From Candidatus Acetothermia bacterium (GTDB taxonomy: Bacteria; Bipolaricaulota; Bipolaricaulia; UBA7950): DNA of 64,000 nt. Shown here piece after piece: positions 19,644 to 57,005 of the stretch (positions within the stretch are counted from its first letter, which is position 1; each line of letters opens with the position of its first letter). The notes beneath the pieces are model-generated. The model did no database searches. It saw only the letters and a list, made by a program, of their open reading frames with translations, and had not been told where the DNA came from. Both the position numbers and the translations under genes were made by a program. The stretch lies in assembly GCA_022684035.1 (NCBI GenBank), contig JAJHSB010000062.1:6054-70053 (forward strand), in the 5' to 3' direction.

Positions 19644-19900
19644 TCCTAAATCTTTTACTTATTCACCAAATCCTAACTCCTAAACTCTAAATTCTAAATC
19701 CTAAATTCTAAATCCTAAATTCTAAACAAATTTAAATGTTCCAAATCCAAATAACCAAAACTATGTTTTTCTACTTTCTGCATTTTTCTATTATTATTTC
19801 TCTTGCAAACTCCTCTGTTCTTCTCTCTAAATCATAAAGTTTTGAATTTTGGTCATTTGAGTTTTGAGTTTGTTTGGAGTTTAGAGTTTCGGATTTAGAC
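19644..19900. repeat. MITE-like inverted-repeat element, family 2 (larger copy)
   Basis: A tandem 14-mer (taaattctaaatcc)x3 arm, an AT-rich centre, then the inverse arm ttttgaattttggtcatttgagttttgagtttgtttggagtttagagtttcggatttag. Confidence 0.7.
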
Positions 19901-34490: not shown

Positions 34491-36533
34491 TCAGTCTTTG
34501 ACGCACGAGATACTTTGTAAAGATAGCTGCGCCAACTTCTTCACCACCATCTCCTCAAAGATCGCTGGAAGGCGCTCTTCGGTCACTCCTTCAAGTATTT
34601 GTCCATCAATAACTGCTGATGGTCCACGATCGCATTGCTCAAGACAGAAAGTGGCTTGCACGTTGACGCGATCGGATAGTCCCTGCTTTTCAATCAAGGC
34701 TGCCAATTCTTGTATCACACCATAAGACCCTCGCAGATAGCAACTAGTGCCGACACAAACCTGGATCTCCATCGTAGGCCGCTCAGCGGCTACAACTGGG
34801 ATGAATTGTTCAAATACGCGCCGGCGTGAGGCGTAGGTAGTATGCAAGGCGTGGTGGGCAACATCGCTTCCTGGCTCCTTCAGCCATTGCTGGTAAAGTT
34901 CGCTAATGAATGGATTATCCTGTACTGTTCGTATCTGCTTCAGCCGGTCTGCTGCTCGCATACCTCCTGCTCGCTGCTGCCGGACCTGGATATTGTTGAT
35001 TAGGGGTTGTCCACCGCCAGCGACACATCCTCCTGGGCAGGCCATTACCTCCACCAGATGGTATGAGAGTTCTCCCGCGCGCAGGGCAGCGATCAACTTC
35101 TTGGCTGCCCCCAAAGTGTGTACCGTAGCGATGCGAATTACCCTGTTACCTACGGGTACGATAGCCTCATTCACATTGGGGAATCCCTCCACCGGAGTAA
35201 AGGCAAAATCAACCGGCGGCCTTTTCCCGGACAACTTATAGATCGCGGTTCGTATTACTGCCGTGCTCACTCCGCTGAAGACGCCGAAGATGGTGCCCGC
35301 ACCGCTAGCAAATCCAAATGGCAAATCGAAGGAGTCATCTTCAAGTTCCGCAAAGACGATTCCCATCTCGCGAATCATCCGCGCCAGTTCGTGAGTGGAA
35401 ATAACGGCGTCGACATCAGGACTTCCCTCTGTAGTGAGTTCCGGCCGCCTGGCCTCAAACTTCTTGGCTGTGCAGGGCATCACCGAAACCACAAAGATAT
35501 CCTGTGGGGAGAGCCCTTGTTCTTTGGCATAGAACTTCTTGAGCAGTGAGCCGAGCATCTGTTGGGGAGAACGGCAAGTTGAGAGTTGAGGCAGAAGATC
35601 AGAGTGGAAGTGTTCAGCATACTTTACCCACGCTGGACAGCAACTGGTAAATTGCGGTAGATGCTCCCCTGTTTCGAGATGATGCAAGAATTCGGTCGTT
35701 TCCTCCATCGTTGTCAAATCAGCAGCAAAAGAGGTATCGTAAATCTCGTGAAATCCCAGCCGACGCAGAGCAGCGACCATCTTACCGGTACTGATTGTGC
35801 CTGCTTTCTCCCCGAACTCTTCGCCCAGGGCGACGCGCACCGCCGGGGCTGTCTGAACGATCACTCGCTTATGTGGGTCGCTTAGAGCTGCCCAGACAGC
35901 ATCAATCTCGAATTTTATCGTCAGCGCAGCAGTAGGACAGGCCTGGATACACTGACCGCATCCCACACATTCCCCCTCAGCCAGAGATTTATTGAATGCC
36001 GGTATTACTTGTACTGCCGCACCCCGGTAGGCAAAGTCCAGCACTCCGATTCCTTGAATCTCGGAACAGTTGCGCACGCAGTTCCCACACAGCACGCACT
36101 TATTCGGATCGCGTACCAGGCTAGGGCTCGATGTGTCGCGCGGCAGTGGTTCTCGATCTTTACCAAAGCGAATATTGCCAATGCCGAAGCGGAGTGTTAA
36201 TTCCTGCAGCCGGCACTGGCCGCTCTTCTCACAGATAGTGCAATCACGATCGTGATCAGCGAGGAGCAGCTCCAGAATGGTGCGGCGCATTCGTTGCAAA
36301 CGAGGAGTAGTGGTGCGAATGACCATTCCGTCGGCTGGCGGGGTGGAGCAGGAAGCAATAAAGCCCAGTTTTTCTTCCTCTACTATACACATGCGGCATG
36401 CTCCGAAGTCCGATAACTCGAAGTGGTAACAGAAGGCCGGGAGATCCACACCGGCTTTGCGAACTAGCTCCAGGATGTTTGTTTCTCCATCGATGGGTAA
36501 GACTTTTTTGTCAATCGTGATTGTACCACTCAC
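34491..36533 (-). CDS. hydA: [FeFe]-hydrogenase catalytic subunit HydA (group A3, Thermotoga-type, with C-terminal thioredoxin-like 2Fe-2S domain)
   Basis: N-terminal 2Fe-2S and 4Fe-4S ferredoxin domains. H-cluster motifs L1 TSCCPAWV, L2 MPCTAKKFE and L3 EVMACPGGC. C-terminal NuoE-like CVGTSCY...CLEQCDRGP. GTG start with a GGAGGT RBS. Confidence 0.9.
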   Translation of the reverse strand: MSGTITIDKKVLPIDGETNILELVRKAGVDLPAFCYHFELSDFGACRMCIVEEEKLGFIASCSTPPADGMVIRTTTPRLQRMRRTILELLLADHDRDCTICEKSGQCRLQELTLRFGIGNIRFGKDREPLPRDTSSPSLVRDPNKCVLCGNCVRNCSEIQGIGVLDFAYRGAAVQVIPAFNKSLAEGECVGCGQCIQACPTAALTIKFEIDAVWAALSDPHKRVIVQTAPAVRVALGEEFGEKAGTISTGKMVAALRRLGFHEIYDTSFAADLTTMEETTEFLHHLETGEHLPQFTSCCPAWVKYAEHFHSDLLPQLSTCRSPQQMLGSLLKKFYAKEQGLSPQDIFVVSVMPCTAKKFEARRPELTTEGSPDVDAVISTHELARMIREMGIVFAELEDDSFDLPFGFASGAGTIFGVFSGVSTAVIRTAIYKLSGKRPPVDFAFTPVEGFPNVNEAIVPVGNRVIRIATVHTLGAAKKLIAALRAGELSYHLVEVMACPGGCVAGGGQPLINNIQVRQQRAGGMRAADRLKQIRTVQDNPFISELYQQWLKEPGSDVAHHALHTTYASRRRVFEQFIPVVAAERPTMEIQVCVGTSCYLRGSYGVIQELAALIEKQGLSDRVNVQATFCLEQCDRGPSAVIDGQILEGVTEERLPAIFEEMVVKKLAQLSLQSISCVKD

Positions 36534-36587
36534 TTTTTACCTCCGATGATAAAATTAACCACGAATATACGCGAATTGACACGAATG

Positions 36588-36986
36588 TTATAAAACTATT
36601 CTTTCATATTCTAACTTCGGTCTTGCAAAATTTATTATTATTCCTAACTTTAACCCAGTTGCTTTAAGATAATTTATTACTTGAGCACGGTGAATATCAG
36701 TAATCTTCTCAACACACTTCATCTCTAAAATTATTTCATCCTCTACAAGTATATCAGCAAAATATTCGCCGACTATTTCTCCCTCAAAATGCACTTTGAG
36801 CGGTGCTTGCTGAACTACCTTCATCCCATTTTTATTCAATTTTATTATTACTGCATTTTCATACACTTTCTCTAAAAATCCTGCTCCAAGAGTATTATGC
36901 ACCTCCATTACTGCGCCTATCACTTTATAGGAAAGTTCTTTATGCAGTATTTTTTCGTGTTCATTAGTGTTCATTCGTGGTTTCAT
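36588..36986 (-). CDS. GxxExxY family protein (PD-(D/E)XK-like) inserted between hydB and hydA
   Basis: The family signature reads GAGFLEKVYENA; 132 aa. Its first 11 codons are encoded by a 30-bp repeat that also occurs intact directly after the hydB stop. Confidence 0.8.
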   Translation of the reverse strand: MKPRMNTNEHEKILHKELSYKVIGAVMEVHNTLGAGFLEKVYENAVIIKLNKNGMKVVQQAPLKVHFEGEIVGEYFADILVEDEIILEMKCVEKITDIHRAQVINYLKATGLKLGIIINFARPKLEYERIVL

Positions 36987-37116
36987 TAGGTAATTCGGTA
37001 ATTCGGGGTCAGGTCTTGAATTTTAACATTTATCTTAAGCCACGAATTAACACGAAAAGTTATAAAACAAGCTCTTTATAAATAATTTCGTGTTCATTAG
37101 TGTTCATTCGTGGTTT
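36954..37116. repeat. duplicated intergenic segment flanking the GxxExxY gene
   Basis: The 30-mer ttcgtgttcattagtgttcattcgtggttt is identical at 36954-36983 and 37087-37116. cgaattNacacgaaNNgttataaaac is also present at 36572-36596 and 37043-37068. Confidence 0.85.
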
Positions 37117-37119
37117 TAT

Positions 37120-38943
37120 CTATTTAAGTCGTCCCGGAATGCATGTCACCGCGGCAAATCGCTCCGGGCATACACTCAAGCATATCCCACATCTGTTACA
37201 CTTATCCTGGTCTATAACGTGAACCTCTTTCTTACCACCTGTAATCGCTCCGATAGGGCACTTCCGCAGACAGATCATACAGGCTTTACATTTATCCGGC
37301 GCGATATAGTAAGAGATAAGCGGCGGGCACACCCTTGCGGGGCATTTTTGTTCACAGATATGAGCGATGTACTCATCATGGAAGTAGCGAAGCGTTGTGA
37401 GCACCGGGTTGGGAGCTGTTTTCCCCAGTTGACAGAGTGATCCATCCTTGACGGTAGTAGCTATTTCTTGTAGCAAATCGAGGTCCTCTTCCCGCCCATC
37501 TCCGCTGGTGATTCGGGTGAGAATCTCCAGCATCCGCTTCGTCCCCTCGCGACAGGGCACGCACTTACCACAGGATTCATTCTGGGTAAACTTCATAAAG
37601 TAGCGAGCTACCTCTACCATGCAATCATCCTCACTGAGAACTACCAGCCCGCCCGAACCCATGATCGCTCCTGCGGAGGTTAAAGATTCATAATCTATAC
37701 CATAATCCAGGTGTGTCGCCGGAAGGCATCCCCCAGAAGGGCCGCCTATTTGCACCGCCTTGAACTTTTTGCCGCCTTCTACACCTCCTCCGATATCAAA
37801 GATGATTTGGCGTATGGTGAGGCCAAATGGTATTTCGACCAATCCAGTGTTATTTACCTTTCCGGTCAAAGCGAAGGTCTTTGTCCCGGGATTAGTAGGT
37901 GTACCAAAGCTGCGAAACCAATCCGCCCCGTTTAATATGATTCCTGGTACATGGCCTAAAGTCTCGACGTTATTGATGACTGTCGGATTACCCCGCAGCC
38001 CTGAAGTTGCCGGAAAAGGAGGTCGCTGCCGTGGCATTCCACGTCTGCCTTCCATGGCAGCAATCATCGCCGTCTCTTCGCCGCAGACAAAGGCACCTGC
38101 CCCTTCCATGATATCGATCTGACAGGAGAAATCGCTTCCGAGAATCCCATCGCCAATCAAACTATATCCTTGGGCATCATCTATCGCCTGCTGCAAGCGC
38201 TTTACGGCGAGTGGGTACTCAGCTCGTACGTAATAAATATATCCCTGCCGAGCTCCAATCGCATAGGCGGCAATCAGCATTCCCTCTAATACCCGATGGG
38301 GATCGCCCTCAAGTAAGCTGCGGTTCATAAATGCCCCTGGATCACCCTCATCACCGTTACAGACCACATACTTCACCTCTCCGGGAGCGCGGTAAGCAAA
38401 CTCCCACTTCCGCCCAGTGGGGAACCCGGCACCGCCACGGCCGCGCAGGATTGAGCGTTTGATCTCTTCAATAACATCTTCCGGGTTCATTTCAAAGAGG
38501 GCTTTACCGAGAGCCTCATATCCACCCCGAGCGATATACTCCTCGATGTTCTCCGGATTAATCACACCGCAGTTGCCGAGAACAATACGCTGCTGCTTGG
38601 CGTAGAAGGGCATCTCGCTGTAGTGCGGCAAGGCCTGATGAGAGATCGGTTCTTTATAGGTAAGGGCTTCCACCACCCGACCTTTCACAAAGGTCTCCTC
38701 CACCAGATGAGGGATGTCTTTCTCCTGAACACGGCAGTAAAGAATTCCCTCGGGATAGATGATCACCAACGGGCCCATTTCGCAGAGCCCGTGACAACCG
38801 GTGAAAATTACCCGCACCTCATCTTCAAGGCCGCGGCGTGCAATCTCTACCTTCAGGAGATTGAATATCTTGTCCGCACCGGAGGCAACACATCCGGTAC
38901 CTCTACATACCAGGGCATTTGCTCGATAAAAAGCTTCAGTCAT
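37120..38943 (-). CDS. hydB: [FeFe]-hydrogenase beta subunit HydB (NuoF-like NADH/FMN-binding flavoprotein with 2Fe-2S and 2x4Fe-4S)
   Basis: NuoF motifs (GRGGAGFPTG, C-x2-C-x2-C-x3-CP pairs). Start reset to ATG 38943, which has an AAGGAGGT RBS; the ORF-track extension to 38988 runs into the MITE. Confidence 0.9.
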   Translation of the reverse strand: MTEAFYRANALVCRGTGCVASGADKIFNLLKVEIARRGLEDEVRVIFTGCHGLCEMGPLVIIYPEGILYCRVQEKDIPHLVEETFVKGRVVEALTYKEPISHQALPHYSEMPFYAKQQRIVLGNCGVINPENIEEYIARGGYEALGKALFEMNPEDVIEEIKRSILRGRGGAGFPTGRKWEFAYRAPGEVKYVVCNGDEGDPGAFMNRSLLEGDPHRVLEGMLIAAYAIGARQGYIYYVRAEYPLAVKRLQQAIDDAQGYSLIGDGILGSDFSCQIDIMEGAGAFVCGEETAMIAAMEGRRGMPRQRPPFPATSGLRGNPTVINNVETLGHVPGIILNGADWFRSFGTPTNPGTKTFALTGKVNNTGLVEIPFGLTIRQIIFDIGGGVEGGKKFKAVQIGGPSGGCLPATHLDYGIDYESLTSAGAIMGSGGLVVLSEDDCMVEVARYFMKFTQNESCGKCVPCREGTKRMLEILTRITSGDGREEDLDLLQEIATTVKDGSLCQLGKTAPNPVLTTLRYFHDEYIAHICEQKCPARVCPPLISYYIAPDKCKACMICLRKCPIGAITGGKKEVHVIDQDKCNRCGICLSVCPERFAAVTCIPGRLK

Positions 38944-38956
38944 CAGATTACCTCCT

Positions 38957-39200
38957 TCCCCGGACAAGCCGGAAATCCCAATAACCAAATCTCAATTTCC
39001 AAACAATAATCAAATTTCAATAATCAAACTTCTATTGCGATTTGTCGATAATCGAGGAGAAGACTCCGGCCTTTCTGTTTGAGATTTTGGTCATTGGTCA
39101 TTGAGCTTTGTTTGGAAATTGGTGCTTGGAATTTGTGATTTCAACTCCTTGCCATTCCCCGCCTTCGCGAGGACAAGTTTGCGTCAGATTTCAGATTTTG
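38957..39200. repeat. family-1 MITE-like element, about 245 bp, complete, inside the hyd operon
   Basis: Left arm ccggacaagccggaaatcccaataaccaaatctcaatttccaaacaataatcaaa. Right arm tttgagattttggtcattggtcattgagctttgtttggaaattggtgcttggaatttgtgatttcaa. About 90% identical, as reverse complement, to 55611-55865. Confidence 0.85.
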
Positions 39201-39892: not shown

Positions 39893-40195
39893 CTATCTTC
39901 TCCTTGTTCTTAAATCCTCTTCCCATTCGGCGGGCTGTGGTTCGTACGCTATTATAATCTCCTCTTCTGCTTTACCGCAAACCACATGTAACGGTCTTCC
40001 TTCGTGAGTGAAGCCCAGGATCAGACAACTTGGTCCTCTATGATCACGTGGATAATCCTCGATTATCTCGCCTTTAGAAATAGCTTCTTCAATCTCCCGA
40101 ACGCCTATCCTTCTCCTTCGAATCTTTTCAGTATGTGTAAACGACCCATGATACTTCCCCTCTTTAACCTTCTGCCTAATTTCGTTTAAAGTCAC
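39893..40195 (-). CDS. DUF4258 protein (putative toxin of a DUF4258/YgiT-ZnF pair)
   Basis: The motifs GEIIEDYPRDHRGPSCLILGF...GRPLHVVCG...IIIAYEPQPAEWEEDLRTRRR match the DUF4258 consensus. GTG start. Confidence 0.8.
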   Translation of the reverse strand: MTLNEIRQKVKEGKYHGSFTHTEKIRRRRIGVREIEEAISKGEIIEDYPRDHRGPSCLILGFTHEGRPLHVVCGKAEEEIIIAYEPQPAEWEEDLRTRRR

Positions 40196-40276: not shown

Positions 40277-40396
40277 CTAACCCGAACAAGCCGGAAATCC
40301 CAATGACCAAATCTCAAATTCCAAACAATAATCAAATTCCAATAACCAATCCCTGCCTTCGGCTCGTGGCTCGTGGCTCGTGGCTCGTGGCTCGAA
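40277..40396. repeat. family-1 MITE half-element plus (GGCTCGT)x5 heptamer array
   Basis: cccgaacaagccggaaatcccaatgaccaaatctcaaattccaaacaataatcaaattccaataaccaa followed by ggctcgtggctcgtggctcgtggctcgtggctcg. Confidence 0.8.
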
Positions 40397-40451
40397 GGAT
40401 TTGATTAAAGACCTTTTCCTCCAGCCTCCAGCCACCAGTCACCAGCTACTT

Positions 40452-41151: not shown

Positions 41152-41385
41152 CTAAATTCTGAAGTTTTGCGCAAAATGGCAAGGAATTGAAATCTCAAAT
41201 CCCAAGCACCAATTTCCAAACAAAGCTCAATGACCAATGACCAAAATCTCAGACAGAAAAGCCAGAGTATTTTTCTCGCTTAGGGACAAATTGCTCATAG
41301 AAGTTTGGTTATTGGGATTTGGTTATTGTTTGGAAATTGAGATTTGGTCATTGGGATTTCCAGCTTGTCCGGTTTAGGGACAGAA
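41152..41385. repeat. family-1 MITE-like element (complete copy)
   Basis: ctaaattctgaagttttgcgcaaaatgg...aatgaccaatgaccaaaatctca [about 50-bp core] tttggttattgggatttggttattgtttggaaattgagatttggtcattgggatttccagcttgtccgg. Confidence 0.85.
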
Positions 41386-46264: not shown

Positions 46265-46285
46265 TTCGTGGTTCGTGGTTCGTAG
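46265..46285. repeat. heptamer array (TTCGTGG)x3
   Basis: ttcgtggttcgtggttcgtag, immediately upstream of the adhesin start codon. Confidence 0.8.
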
Positions 46286-50299: not shown

Positions 50300-50400
50300 G
50301 TTCGGAGAAGAGAGGTTGCTGGTGGTTGGTCGCTGTCTCCTGTCTCCTGTTTCCTGTCTCCTGGCTACTGGCTCGACTCGCAATGACAAGAAAGCGAAGG
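50300..50400. repeat. composite repeat with (TGTCTCC)x4 heptamers and 'ctcgcaatgac'
   Basis: gttcggagaagagaggttgctggtggttggtcgctgtctcctgtctcctgtttcctgtctcctggctactggctcgactcgcaatgac. Confidence 0.7.
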
Positions 50401-53606: not shown

Positions 53607-53896
53607 TTATTTATTAAAAGATAATGATACATTCTATATAAAATCTATCTTCCATGTTTTCTGCTTCTTTTTAATTCTTACTGTGTCGCCACTAAAATGA
53701 AGTATCCACTTGACTTTTGCAAAGAGATATATATAATTAATTTAATGTCTATGTTGTTGTGGGCAACTTGGCGAGACAGTTGTACAACTCTTCTTTGCCT
53801 GCTGCTCGGCAACTGAAAAGAAAATCGACAATAGCAAGAGGTGGTCGGTCGAGTAAGTTGATTATAGATTAATCATAGTTAAAATAGACGTTAAAA

Positions 53897-54340
53897 GCCA
53901 GATAAACCTAACGGAGGTAAATGCGATGACCGGAAAAAAGGACATCAAAAAGCCAGATAAGCCTAATGTCGGCAAGAGCGATGCCCAGAAAAAAGGGCCA
54001 GCAAAAAGATAGATAAACCTAATGGAGGTAAATGCGATGACCGGAAAAAAGGACATCAAAAAGCCAGATAAGCCTAACGGCGGCAAGAGCGATGCCCAGA
54101 AAAAAGGGCCACAAAAAGCTAGATAAGTATAGCTAACGTAGGAGCGATGCCCAGAAAAAAGGGCAAAAACAAAAGAACAGATAACAATAGCGGAGGTAAG
54201 AGCGATGGCCGAAAAAAAGGGCAGCAAAAAGCCAGATAAGTCTAGCCAACGTAAGAGCGATGCCCAGAAAAAAGGGCAAAAACAAAAGAACAGATAACAA
54301 TAGCGGAGGTAAGAGCGATGGCCGAAAAAAAGGGCAAAAA
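53897..54340. repeat. tandem array (about 8 units of 50-60 bp) duplicating the RBS, start codon and first codons of the downstream beta-CA gene
   Basis: Units follow the form gccagataaRcctaaYgg(a/c)gg(t/c)aa(a/g)Ngcgatg(a/c/g)ccNgaaaaaaggNc...aaaaa. Each unit carries GGAGGTAA-N-GCGATG and short Lys-rich ORFs (for example MTGKKDIKKPDKPNVGKSDAQKKGPAKR*). The last unit is the real gene start at 54318. Confidence 0.85.
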
Positions 54341-55610: not shown

Positions 55611-55920
55611 TCTAAAATCTAAAGTCTTGCGCAAACTTGTCCTCGCGAAGGCGGGGAATGGAAAGAAGTTAAACTCACAAATTCCAAGCACCAATTTCCA
55701 AACAAATCTCAATGACCAATGACCAAAATCTCAAACAGAAAGGCCGGAGTCTTTTCCTCGATTGTCGACAAATCGCTCATAGAAGTTTGGTTATTAGGAT
55801 TTGGTTATTGTTTGGAAATTGAGATTTGGTCATTGGGATTTCCGGCTTGTCCGGGTTAGGGGCAAAACAAACTCTGTAGGATTAAGCAACGGGATTGCTT
55901 CGCAGACTCACAATGACAAA
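55611..55920. repeat. family-1 MITE-like element (complete) plus 'gcaatgac' tail, 5' of the tRNA cluster
   Basis: ggtctaaaatctaaagtcttgcgcaaa ... aatgaccaatgaccaaaatctcaaacag [core] tttggttattaggatttggttattgtttggaaattgagatttggtcattgggatttccggcttgtccgggttagg, then gggattgcttcgcagactcacaatgac. Confidence 0.85.
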
Positions 55921-56605: not shown

Positions 56606-57005
56606 TGCTAAAATCTGAAGTCTTGCGCAAAATGGAAAGGAATTGAAATCACAAATTCCAAGCACCAATAACTAACTACCAGAAAGAGTGACTCGTGACT
56701 CGTGACTGGTAACTGGAGGGGAAGATCCCACGAGCCACGAGTCACGAACCACGAGTCACGAACCACGAGCCACGAGCCGAAGGCAGGGATTGGTTATTGG
56801 GATTTGGTTATTGTTTGGAAATTGAGATTTGGTCATTGGGATTTCCGGCTTGTCCGGGTTAGGGGCAAAACAAACTCTGTAGGATTATAAGGAATGAGAT
56901 TGCTTCGCTGACTCGCAATGACAAAGGAAGGTAATTTGCAATGACCTGCGAAGAGACTCGCAATGACCTGTCTGCGTGCGGGAGACGTACAGGCAGGCGG
57001 AATAG
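56606..57005. repeat. family-1 MITE-like element with internal heptamer arrays plus 'gcaatgac' tail, 3' of the tRNA cluster
   Basis: The core contains gactcgtgactcgtgactggtaactgg and the inverse array cacgagccacgagtcacgaaccacgagtcacgaaccacgagccacgagcc. Arms as in the other family-1 copies. The tail gagattgcttcgctgactcgcaatgacaaaggaaggtaatttgcaatgacc is about 95% identical, as reverse complement, to 46541-46592. Confidence 0.85.

Follow-up and report, generated by a model that had tools for sequence, protein, structure and literature searches.

A GxxExxY nuclease gene and a gene-less MITE-like unit bounded by inverted decamer-array arms at a hydB/hydA junction: a candidate very small mobile element

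The described arrangement that appears closest to the locus reported here, which lies in a 64-kb stretch of DNA from a Candidatus Acetothermia bacterium (the window, meaning the whole stretch analysed), is that of the REP sequences and REPINs with their RAYT enzymes. In both cases inverted copies of a short repeat enclose one small enzyme gene, gene-less copies of this repeat are dispersed over intergenic regions as hairpins or doublets that often form clusters, and the type of repeat matches the clade of the enzyme. The arrangement is analogous only, as the enzyme encoded at this locus is a PD-(D/E)XK nuclease and not a HUH/Y1 (IS200/IS605-like) transposase. In addition, the repeats at this locus (hereafter arms) are arrays of two to three ten-base units rather than one palindrome, the start codon of the gene is supplied by the arm and, whereas REPs are, as far as is known, species-specific, one arm sequence spans phyla.

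MITEs and their parent transposons share with this locus terminal inverted repeats at the limits of the homologous unit, gene-less deletion derivatives in which both ends are retained, amplification in a single genome (here in a Ratteibacteria MAG) and the existence of a filled and an empty site (here at hydB/hydA). In contrast to MITE parents, the only gene present encodes a nuclease of about 128 residues that does not resemble the DDE, serine, tyrosine or HUH transposases, the complete autonomous unit would measure only about 430 bp, and no target-site duplication was recognised at the window junctions. Homing endonucleases, which include PD-(D/E)XK types such as I-Ssp6803I and target one conserved host sequence, are comparable in that a very small selfish nuclease gene is located between or within conserved host genes that are left undestroyed. 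In contrast, the elements considered here are found at unrelated junctions (hydB/hydA, gatA/gatB and others) and have their own conserved inverted termini; the flanks of the window locus and of the homologous loci L115-L117 and L033 are mutually unrelated, with no single conserved target.

The intervening sequences (IVS) of 23S rRNA also carry a small ORF, and the inverted repeats around it can pair into a long stem within the transcript of the host. They invade a transcribed host unit, are sporadically distributed and encode a protein without known function, the 23S_rRNA_IVP/four-helix-bundle family being mentioned as uncharacterised (PMC11270868). However, the host is here a protein-coding operon and not an rRNA helix, the protein belongs to PF13366 and not to PF05635, and the inverted repeats lack a strand-specific G.U signature of RNA pairing. 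The function of the GxxExxY family itself (TIGR04256/PDDEXK_3) is listed as unknown (PMC3424549), and the window gene matches it with a high score over the full length and has an intact motif and intact catalytic residues. Literature searches with the family names, accessions, arm sequences and arm-derived peptides yielded only lists that call the family "unknown", with no description of it and no mention of decamer arms, an arm-encoded start or gene-less derivatives of GxxExxY. The family is very large, with 18,332 representatives at 50% identity (E <= 0.001) and at least about 8,000 clusters at 90% identity among the matches listed.

The insertion at the hydB/hydA junction

The hydA and hydB genes are separated in the window by a gap of 586 bases, which the original prediction had interpreted as a GxxExxY gene inserted between both genes with duplication of the target intergenic region. 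A comparison of this spacer in four relatives has confirmed the insertion. In three of them, L026 (Ca. Hakubella thermalkaliphila), L030 and L111, with HydA proteins 85%, 87% and 89% identical to that of the window, the site is empty and hydB and hydA overlap by 4 nt, and in the fourth (L112, HydA identity 80%) only 25 extra bases, which form a hairpin, are present at the same point. In all four the hydC, hydB and hydA genes are translationally coupled. The empty sites of L026, L030 and L111 read GACGACT(C/A)AATAA(T/C) followed, across the junction, by GGAGGTGAAAAATGAGTGG, and the filled site of the window reads GACGACTTAAATAG followed by ATAAAACCACG at one junction and CGTGGTTAATTTTATCATC followed by GGAGGTAAAAAGTGAGTGG at the other. 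Relative to these empty sites, the segment 36545-37120 is an insertion. The relatives have neither an intergenic region nor any A or B sequence at this point, so the claim of a duplicated target does not hold, and the repeated blocks are instead the inverted termini of two adjacent elements. The features of the locus, listed in the sense (minus-strand) direction, are the following:

37120-38988, minus strand: hydB.
36545-37120 (boundaries +/- 2 nt), minus strand: whole insertion at the hydB/hydA junction, about 575-576 bp, delimited with the empty sites L026, L030 and L111.
37037-37119, minus strand: unit 1, gene-less, with both arms, about 20 nt of the 5' end of the gene and 10 nt of its 3' end.
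37087-37116, minus strand: arm B', 5' arm of the gene-less unit, identical to B and beginning 4 nt past the hydB stop codon.
37057-37086, minus strand: interior of the gene-less unit, with remnants of the gene ends.
37037-37056, minus strand: arm A', 3' arm of the gene-less unit, two decamer units, forming inverted repeats with B' (85-88%).
36989-37008, minus strand: degenerate arm-like repeat, sense CCCCGAATTACCGAATTACC, in the 53-nt spacer between the units.
36557-36986, minus strand: unit 2, complete gene-bearing form, with the GxxExxY gene tightly between two inverted arms.
36954-36982, minus strand: arm B, 5' arm of the gene-bearing unit, three decamer units, sense AACCACGAATGAACACTAATGAACACGAA, matching the consensus of 90 arms.
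36588-36986, minus strand: GxxExxY/PDDEXK_3 nuclease gene, 132 codons from the first ATG.
36557-36585, minus strand: arm A, 3' arm of the gene-bearing unit, three decamer units, plus strand AACCACGAATATACGCGAATTGACACGAA, forming an inverted repeat with 36954-36982 (79% complementary).
36531-36544, minus strand: retained hydA ribosome-binding site GGAGG (36540-36544) and start codon.
34491-36533, minus strand: hydA.

The order on the sense strand is thus hydB stop codon, B', 30 nt, A', the 53-nt spacer, B, gene, A and the ribosome-binding site of hydA. With 32% GC, the insertion is the minimum of the window for any stretch of about 573 nt (window mean 48%). The last six residues of HydB (NNGGEK) are gone and its stop codon is now at the junction (37120-37122), and hydA starts with GTG (36531-36533) instead of the ATG found in L026, L030 and L111. 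The insertion would have been tolerated because hydB gained this junction stop codon and hydA kept its own ribosome-binding site, a model of operon invasion in which a translationally coupled hydrogenase operon was entered and both genes were left intact. Direct repeats are absent from the two sides of the 576-bp insertion. Its outermost bases are inverted (GATAAAA...TTTTATC) and the arm consensus ends in TTA(A/G)CC...GG(C/T)TAA, so a palindromic TA or TTAA duplication would be indistinguishable from an extension of the inverted repeat. The junction sequence and the filled state are identical in a second assembly (L024), and with both assemblies in the same state polymorphism gives no evidence of recent movement at this site.

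The arms, the gene and the gene-less unit

The B block, a 30-mer (TTCGTGTTCATTAGTGTTCATTCGTGGTTT), has exactly two copies in the window (36954-36983 and 37087-37116), as had been predicted, and none is expected in shuffled sequences. Both copies are identical over 31 nt, and the repeat reaches 34 nt with one mismatch (36953-36986 and 37086-37119). The A block, which had also been described as duplicated, is present in two copies (36559-36596 and 37040-37068), although it really consists of two sub-blocks, CCACGAATnnAC(A/G)CGAA and GTTATAAAAC, with a spacing that differs by 1 nt between the copies and with three units in the first copy against two in the second. A and B are mutual inverted repeats, 79-89% complementary, a relation that the earlier description had missed. 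The period of the arms is 10 bases and not the tandem 9-mer initially proposed for B, each arm being composed of two to three ten-base units (CCACGAATnnACACGAAT...) with the core CACGAAT. This heptamer, which was said to occur throughout the window, is not enriched there overall, with 12 occurrences against 9.3 expected, five of them inside the hydB-hydA locus. CCACGAATNNACACGAA (up to 3 mismatches) gave 9 matches in the window against 1.6 expected, 7 of them in the locus, and no further copies of the blocks or arms were detected in the 64-kb window beyond it. The degenerate repeat of the spacer (TRF period 8, 2.8 copies, 36985-37006) forms an inverted repeat with 37040-37049 and is possibly the remnant of a third arm.

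Both candidate start codons of the gene are located in arm B. The N-terminus of the ORF from the first ATG (MKPRMNTNEHE) is encoded by the B block, and the claim that the repeat encodes the first codons was not only verified but extends to the family, since an arm-frame N-terminus (M-x-T-N...) is found in 83 of the 114 closest homologues with complete N-termini. Because of this prevalence, translation probably starts at the in-arm ATG at 36974-36972, which yields a 128-residue protein (MNTNEHE...) and is also the start used in the NCBI annotation (P0122). At the other end, the last codons (V-L-stop) are inside the GTTATAAAAC part of A, and the 3' arm starts 2 nt past the stop codon.

The protein matched TIGR04256 with 147.9 bits (cut-off 35) over profile positions 1-116 of 116, and PF13366 with 142.2 bits (cut-off 22; E 1.2e-41). 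PF13366 was its only match in Pfam, and no transposase family of Pfam or NCBIfam matched the ORF. The motif G36-F-L-E39-K-V-Y42 and the catalytic residues D78 and E88-M-K90 occupy columns invariant in 30 homologues. An AlphaFold2 model (pLDDT 90) displayed a PD-(D/E)XK core, with the first six residues of the 128-residue form (MNTNEH) predicted to be disordered, and its closest structural neighbours were Cas4/RecB-type nucleases and not transposases. From the invariant D-ExK residues and the modelled fold, the nuclease looks active. No DNA-binding domain is evident in the 128-residue protein. Two GxxExxY domains are fused in a single protein in about 30 of the best 150 of the 18,332 representatives, a hint of a dimeric active form. 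A sequence search of the PDB gave no meaningful match to the protein, and PADLOC and PHROGs gave no match, which leaves the protein unconnected with known defence systems or phage families. Among 2.9 million viral contigs there was one match to the arm and one to the protein, which indicates that the element is not typically phage-borne.

The gene-less unit had been regarded as a MITE-like remnant of the gene-bearing one, and its sequence supports a MITE-like, internally deleted relative of that unit, with both arms and fragments of the gene ends retained. GTTTTATAAC (37059-37068) coincides in 10 of 10 positions with the last two codons and the stop codon of the gene, and the approximately 20 nt at 37069-37088 resemble codons 12-18, with 75% identity to the resident gene and 18 of 20 positions shared with L115 (alignment read by eye). 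The resident gene has an extra codon and resembles the interior AAATTATTTATAAAGAGCTT less closely than the L115 element from another metagenome does (AAATAATTTATAAAGAACTT). Together with the two-unit 3' arm (three units in the gene-bearing form), this L115-like interior points to two separate arrivals or to an old event, and not to a recent local duplication. That B' equals B does not support a recent duplication either but reflects constraint on the arm, as the same 27-mer is present in L115 and in unrelated genomes. The 37035-37120 segment can form a hairpin of -20.3 kcal/mol as RNA (z -4.4) and -16.0 kcal/mol as DNA (z -5.1), both compared with shuffles.

Arms and genes in other genomes

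The mobility attributed to the blocks was corroborated outside the window. The exact 27-mer of the arm (TTCGTGTTCATTAGTGTTCATTCGTGG) was located at 21 other places in about 10 phyla, with unrelated flanks in every case, whereas the chance expectation in 596 Gb, according to our own calculation, is below 1e-4. The matches belong to Bacteroidota, Chloroflexota, Spirochaetota, Ratteibacteria, Planctomycetota, Latescibacterota, Verrucomicrobiota, Acidobacteriota and Myxococcota, and another one is in a MAG of the archaeal Methanotrichaceae, which could be due to contamination of the bin. At these loci the arm arrays have two to three units, CCACGAATnnACAC(G/T)AATnnACACGAA, and are mostly convergent inverted pairs with 15-220 nt inside, or about 400 nt where they contain the GxxExxY gene (L007 and L004). 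The consensus of 90 arms is tTtA(A/G)CCACGAATgAACAC(G/T)AAT(g/a)AACACgAA. The 27-mer is exact in both the window and L007 though their proteins are only 46% identical, and the arms are conserved far beyond the gene.

A GxxExxY gene is located within 8 kb at only 4 of the 21 exact-27-mer loci. The gene-less units adjoin leuS, rpsJ, ribBA and other genes in ordinary intergenic spots. In the Ratteibacteria MAG, 7 exact arms are distributed over 7 contigs in units with common ends and variable interiors, including two near-identical gene-less units of 246 nt separated by 1.5 kb, and the asymmetry of one three-unit and one two-unit arm is also present in these gene-less copies. Judged from these common ends and variable interiors, the copies are a MITE-like amplification.

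An analysis of 80 metagenome loci encoding GxxExxY relatives has been carried out, with statistics of flanking repeats for 74 of them. Periodic repeats (8-12 nt) were detected upstream in 59 and downstream in 52 of the 74 loci, compared to about 11 in shuffles. The inverted-repeat score of the flanks exceeded the 95th percentile of the cross-locus controls in 37 of 74, a control that is inflated because the loci share arm types. A strict test of exact 6-mers in inverted periodic arrangement gave 21 of 74 against 3.3 in the controls, but it is too strict for imperfect arms and the alignment score was used instead. By hand count of the listing, convergent arm pairs surround the ORF in about 55 of the 80 loci, with a gap that typically equals the gene length. 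Among these loci the arm core type was shown to track the protein clade: CACGAA or CACAAA cores are present in all 17 members of the window clade and in none of the 21 members of the ITYKINGAVFEV clade, which mostly have CACAGA or CGCAGA, and the remaining clades have CACGGA, CGCGGA, CACTGA or CACCGA. The gene has the same orientation as both neighbours in 18 loci and the opposite one in 4.

In the elements L115-L117, with proteins 77-84% identical, the DNA similarity extends from arm to arm and not beyond, in different contexts, which defines the mobile unit; in the window, homology with these elements stops at the outer edge of arm A. At L033 one arm pair, between gatA and gatB, encloses an unrelated ORF of 195 residues without a Pfam family. 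When distant arms were compared with the resident arm type in 22 long loci, 7 were the same and 17 different, a count that is uninformative because the two-unit detector also catches chance matches in GC-rich coding DNA. In this comparison only L064 and L087 were clean cases.

Proposed mechanism and alternative explanations

The hydB-hydA insert is best explained, from the comparisons of its sequence, as two neighbouring elements that belong to a single family of very small units with terminal inverted repeats. How such elements would move is a more tentative matter. The reading favoured here, at slightly less than even odds, is that the GxxExxY unit is a gene-carrying mobile element that acts through its own nuclease on the arms and that the gene-less units are moved in trans. 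According to this proposal, the nuclease, as a probable dimer, would recognise the decamer units of both arms and cut at or near the ends of the element, so that its own unit and, by action in trans, also the gene-less units with matching arms would be mobilised. The gene, without an evident promoter of its own, would be expressed by read-through from the host operon, with the 5' arm providing the start codon and the first seven residues or so. Read-through is consistent with the predominance of co-oriented genes and with the promoter and terminator scan of the window locus, where nothing exceeded the shuffled expectation. Several direct repeats of the core in each arm at the spacing of a helical turn, conserved beyond the gene and switching with the clade, suggest sequence-specific recognition by a protein, and the nuclease is favoured as that protein because it is the only one that always travels with the arms. 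The link between protein and arms consists only of adjacency and co-diversification, and plain co-inheritance would give the same pattern.

A different possibility, less probable than the preceding one but still appreciable, is that the arms are REP-like sequences spread or maintained by another enzyme or by host recombination or replication, the GxxExxY gene being a passenger or a domesticated partner. The nuclease would then act on something else, such as foreign DNA or RNA, and the insertion and the MITE-like unit would still be real. The lack of the gene at most exact-arm sites, the gene-free tandem arm arrays in L002 and L004, the unrelated ORF inside the L033 arm pair and the Cas4/RecB-type structural neighbours of the protein agree with this view. 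On the contrary, the arms lie within a few bases of the ORF in most loci and supply its start codon, which is hard to reconcile with an occasional passenger, the GxxExxY clade is tracked by the arm core type, and no other candidate enzyme gene recurs beside the arms in the loci inspected.

It is improbable that the units are RNA cassettes similar to the rRNA intervening sequences, with an arm stem in the hydB-GxxExxY-hydA transcript that RNase III cleaves or that masks the start codon, and with their spread as a secondary matter. The minimum free energy structure of the sense transcript encloses the ORF in a stem of B with A, which contains both candidate start codons, and places a stem of B' with A' directly behind the hydB stop codon; the solo hairpin is significantly stable as RNA and the gene is usually co-oriented with its neighbours. 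However, the fold of the whole 596-nt segment is unexceptional (z -1.4), and the arm mismatches of 48 elements have no sense-strand G.U bias (57 of G.U type against 59 of A.C type). A plain stem needs neither two to three direct core repeats per arm nor exact conservation of 27 nt across phyla, and a search of Rfam with the 36300-37400 region at a permissive threshold found no family, the only match being a chance snoRNA.

Two further candidates failed direct tests. A local tandem duplication of an old hydB-hydA spacer, with loss of the gene from one copy and no mobility, is very improbable: the units are adjacent and in the same orientation, B equals B' over 31 nt and the window has no other copy, but the relatives have no spacer whatever, so that the empty sites already contradict this reading, the same arm is present at 21 places in unrelated genomes, the units are only about 75% alike beyond B and differ in the unit number of the 3' arm, and the solo interior is nearer to L115 than to the neighbouring gene with its extra codon. 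Least probable of all are integron-like gene cassettes moved by a site-specific recombinase acting on attC-like hairpin sites, because, in spite of the small promoter-less ORFs tightly bounded by imperfect palindromes, the side-by-side units in the window, L033 and L002 and the co-orientation of the genes with their neighbours, the gene is inside one inverted pair and not between two complete hairpins, the arms end in TTA(A/G)CCAC without a GTTRRRY/RYYYAAC core, no integrase gene is present in 20 kb around the window locus, and the insertion sites are scattered intergenic junctions instead of an array at attI.

The locus ties a GxxExxY gene to a defined element with inverted decamer-array arms, an arm-encoded start and gene-less hairpin derivatives, and it provides a clean test case with a filled and an empty site side by side. 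With regard to the proposal that the nuclease itself is the mobility enzyme, its 128 residues are, to our knowledge, far below the size of known transposases. The broader idea that one of the smallest and most widespread autonomous elements in prokaryotes owes its mobility to GxxExxY proteins, as a new class of transposase or homing nuclease, is possible but doubtful on the present comparisons. In that case the autonomous unit of about 430 bp would consist of one nuclease of about 125 residues between iteron-built inverted arms, and the nuclease would recognise its own decamer arms, their sequence co-evolving with the protein, and would drive MITE-like hairpin families in bacteria and possibly in archaea. 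A new class of minimal mobile elements would be defined, a function would be given to a very large family that has none listed, and the repeat-derived "hypothetical proteins" of metagenome annotation (MNTNEHE..., ...FISVHSWF) would be explained. The same would apply to assembly breaks at the repeats, as in the Logan contig L025, whose first base falls exactly on arm B, a break of the kind that a repeat is expected to cause.

A possible second insertion in the hyd operon

In the minus-strand hyd operon of the window, hydC and hydB are separated by 1.3 kb, whereas in relatives the two genes overlap by 4 nt. The separating segment is bounded by two copies of a ~70-nt repeat (...ttgattattgtttggaa(a)ttgagatttggt(t/c)attgggatttccggcttgt...) that is present at least five times in the window, and it contains a toxin-like DUF4258 gene and a 126-aa ORF, both of them absent from the hyd operons of the relatives. 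The ORF has revealed a weak match to a thioredoxin-like 2Fe-2S family (E 4.4e-4, under the Pfam cut-off). This segment looks like a second insertion in the operon, distinct from the one found between hydB and hydA.

Repeat copies and genes of the hydC/hydB segment, and further repeat copies in the window
38970-39040, ~70-nt repeat, bounding the segment
39216-39596, minus strand, 126-aa ORF
39893-40195, minus strand, DUF4258 gene, toxin-like (5.6e-21)
40285-40351, ~70-nt repeat, bounding the segment
41303-41359, ~70-nt repeat
55786-55841, ~70-nt repeat
56786-56844, ~70-nt repeat

Small insertions may occur preferentially at the hydB/hydA junction itself. In L112, a relative with a HydA 80% identical to that of the window, a 25-nt GC-rich hairpin (CTTGCCCCGTACTTGATACGGGGAC, ~2965-2990) is located at the exact junction that is occupied in the window.

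Cargo and gene arrangements between the arms

The arms, inverted period-10 arrays that bound the GxxExxY elements, can carry other cargo, since in locus L033 (3957-5088) an unrelated 195-aa ORF was found between them. This locus is a further insertion between adjacent genes, here gatA and gatB, in the order arm, GxxExxY gene, arm, ORF and arm. The ORF has its start (MNTNKHKE) within an arm, showed no match in Pfam and, as read from its sequence, has a putative hydrophobic stretch near the C-terminus.

In a Spirochaetaceae chromosome (L004, 361-742), an arm plus the first ~50 GxxExxY codons is repeated in three tandem copies, with 122-nt spacing, that precede the complete gene, an arrangement that points to the arms as sites of recombination or slippage. 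Proteins of 250-290 aa with two GxxExxY domains make up about 30 of the best 150 family representatives (e.g. P0241-P0243, P0248-P0254), and these may be natural tandem fusions or adjacent genes merged in calling.

Arm arrays and nested repeats in other genomes

Ten CACGAAT-type arms form a tandem array in a Chitinophagaceae MAG (L002, 2390-3009), where a loop and then an opposing arm of variant sequence (CTTTGTGATACTTAGTGCCCTTGTGGC) come after several of them. This pairing tolerates G.T on one strand only. In Ratteibacteria (L013, L019, L020 and L005), the interiors of the gene-less units are composed of a different hairpin module that is likewise widespread (GTCATTGCGAGG...CCTCGCAATGAC), so that one cross-genome repeat family is nested within another.

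Other repeats of the window

Tandem heptamers, which recall the cyanobacterial STRR repeats, are abundant in the intergenic regions of the window and differ from the period-10 arms. The heptamer core (TTCGTG) that the original prediction placed throughout the window probably corresponds to them.

Intergenic tandem heptamers of the window
19668-19726, (AAATCCT)x8.4
39087-39103, TTGGTCA
40361-40394, (GGCTCGT)x4.9
40421-40446, (CCAGCCA)x3.7
41228-41244, CAATGAC
46265-46283, (TTCGTGG)x2.7
50333-50374, (CTGTCTC)x6
56728-56778, (CCACGAG)x7.3

A 55/113-nt tandem repeat of about eight copies (75-87% matches) was also observed at 53893-54337, possibly encoding a lysine-rich repeat protein.
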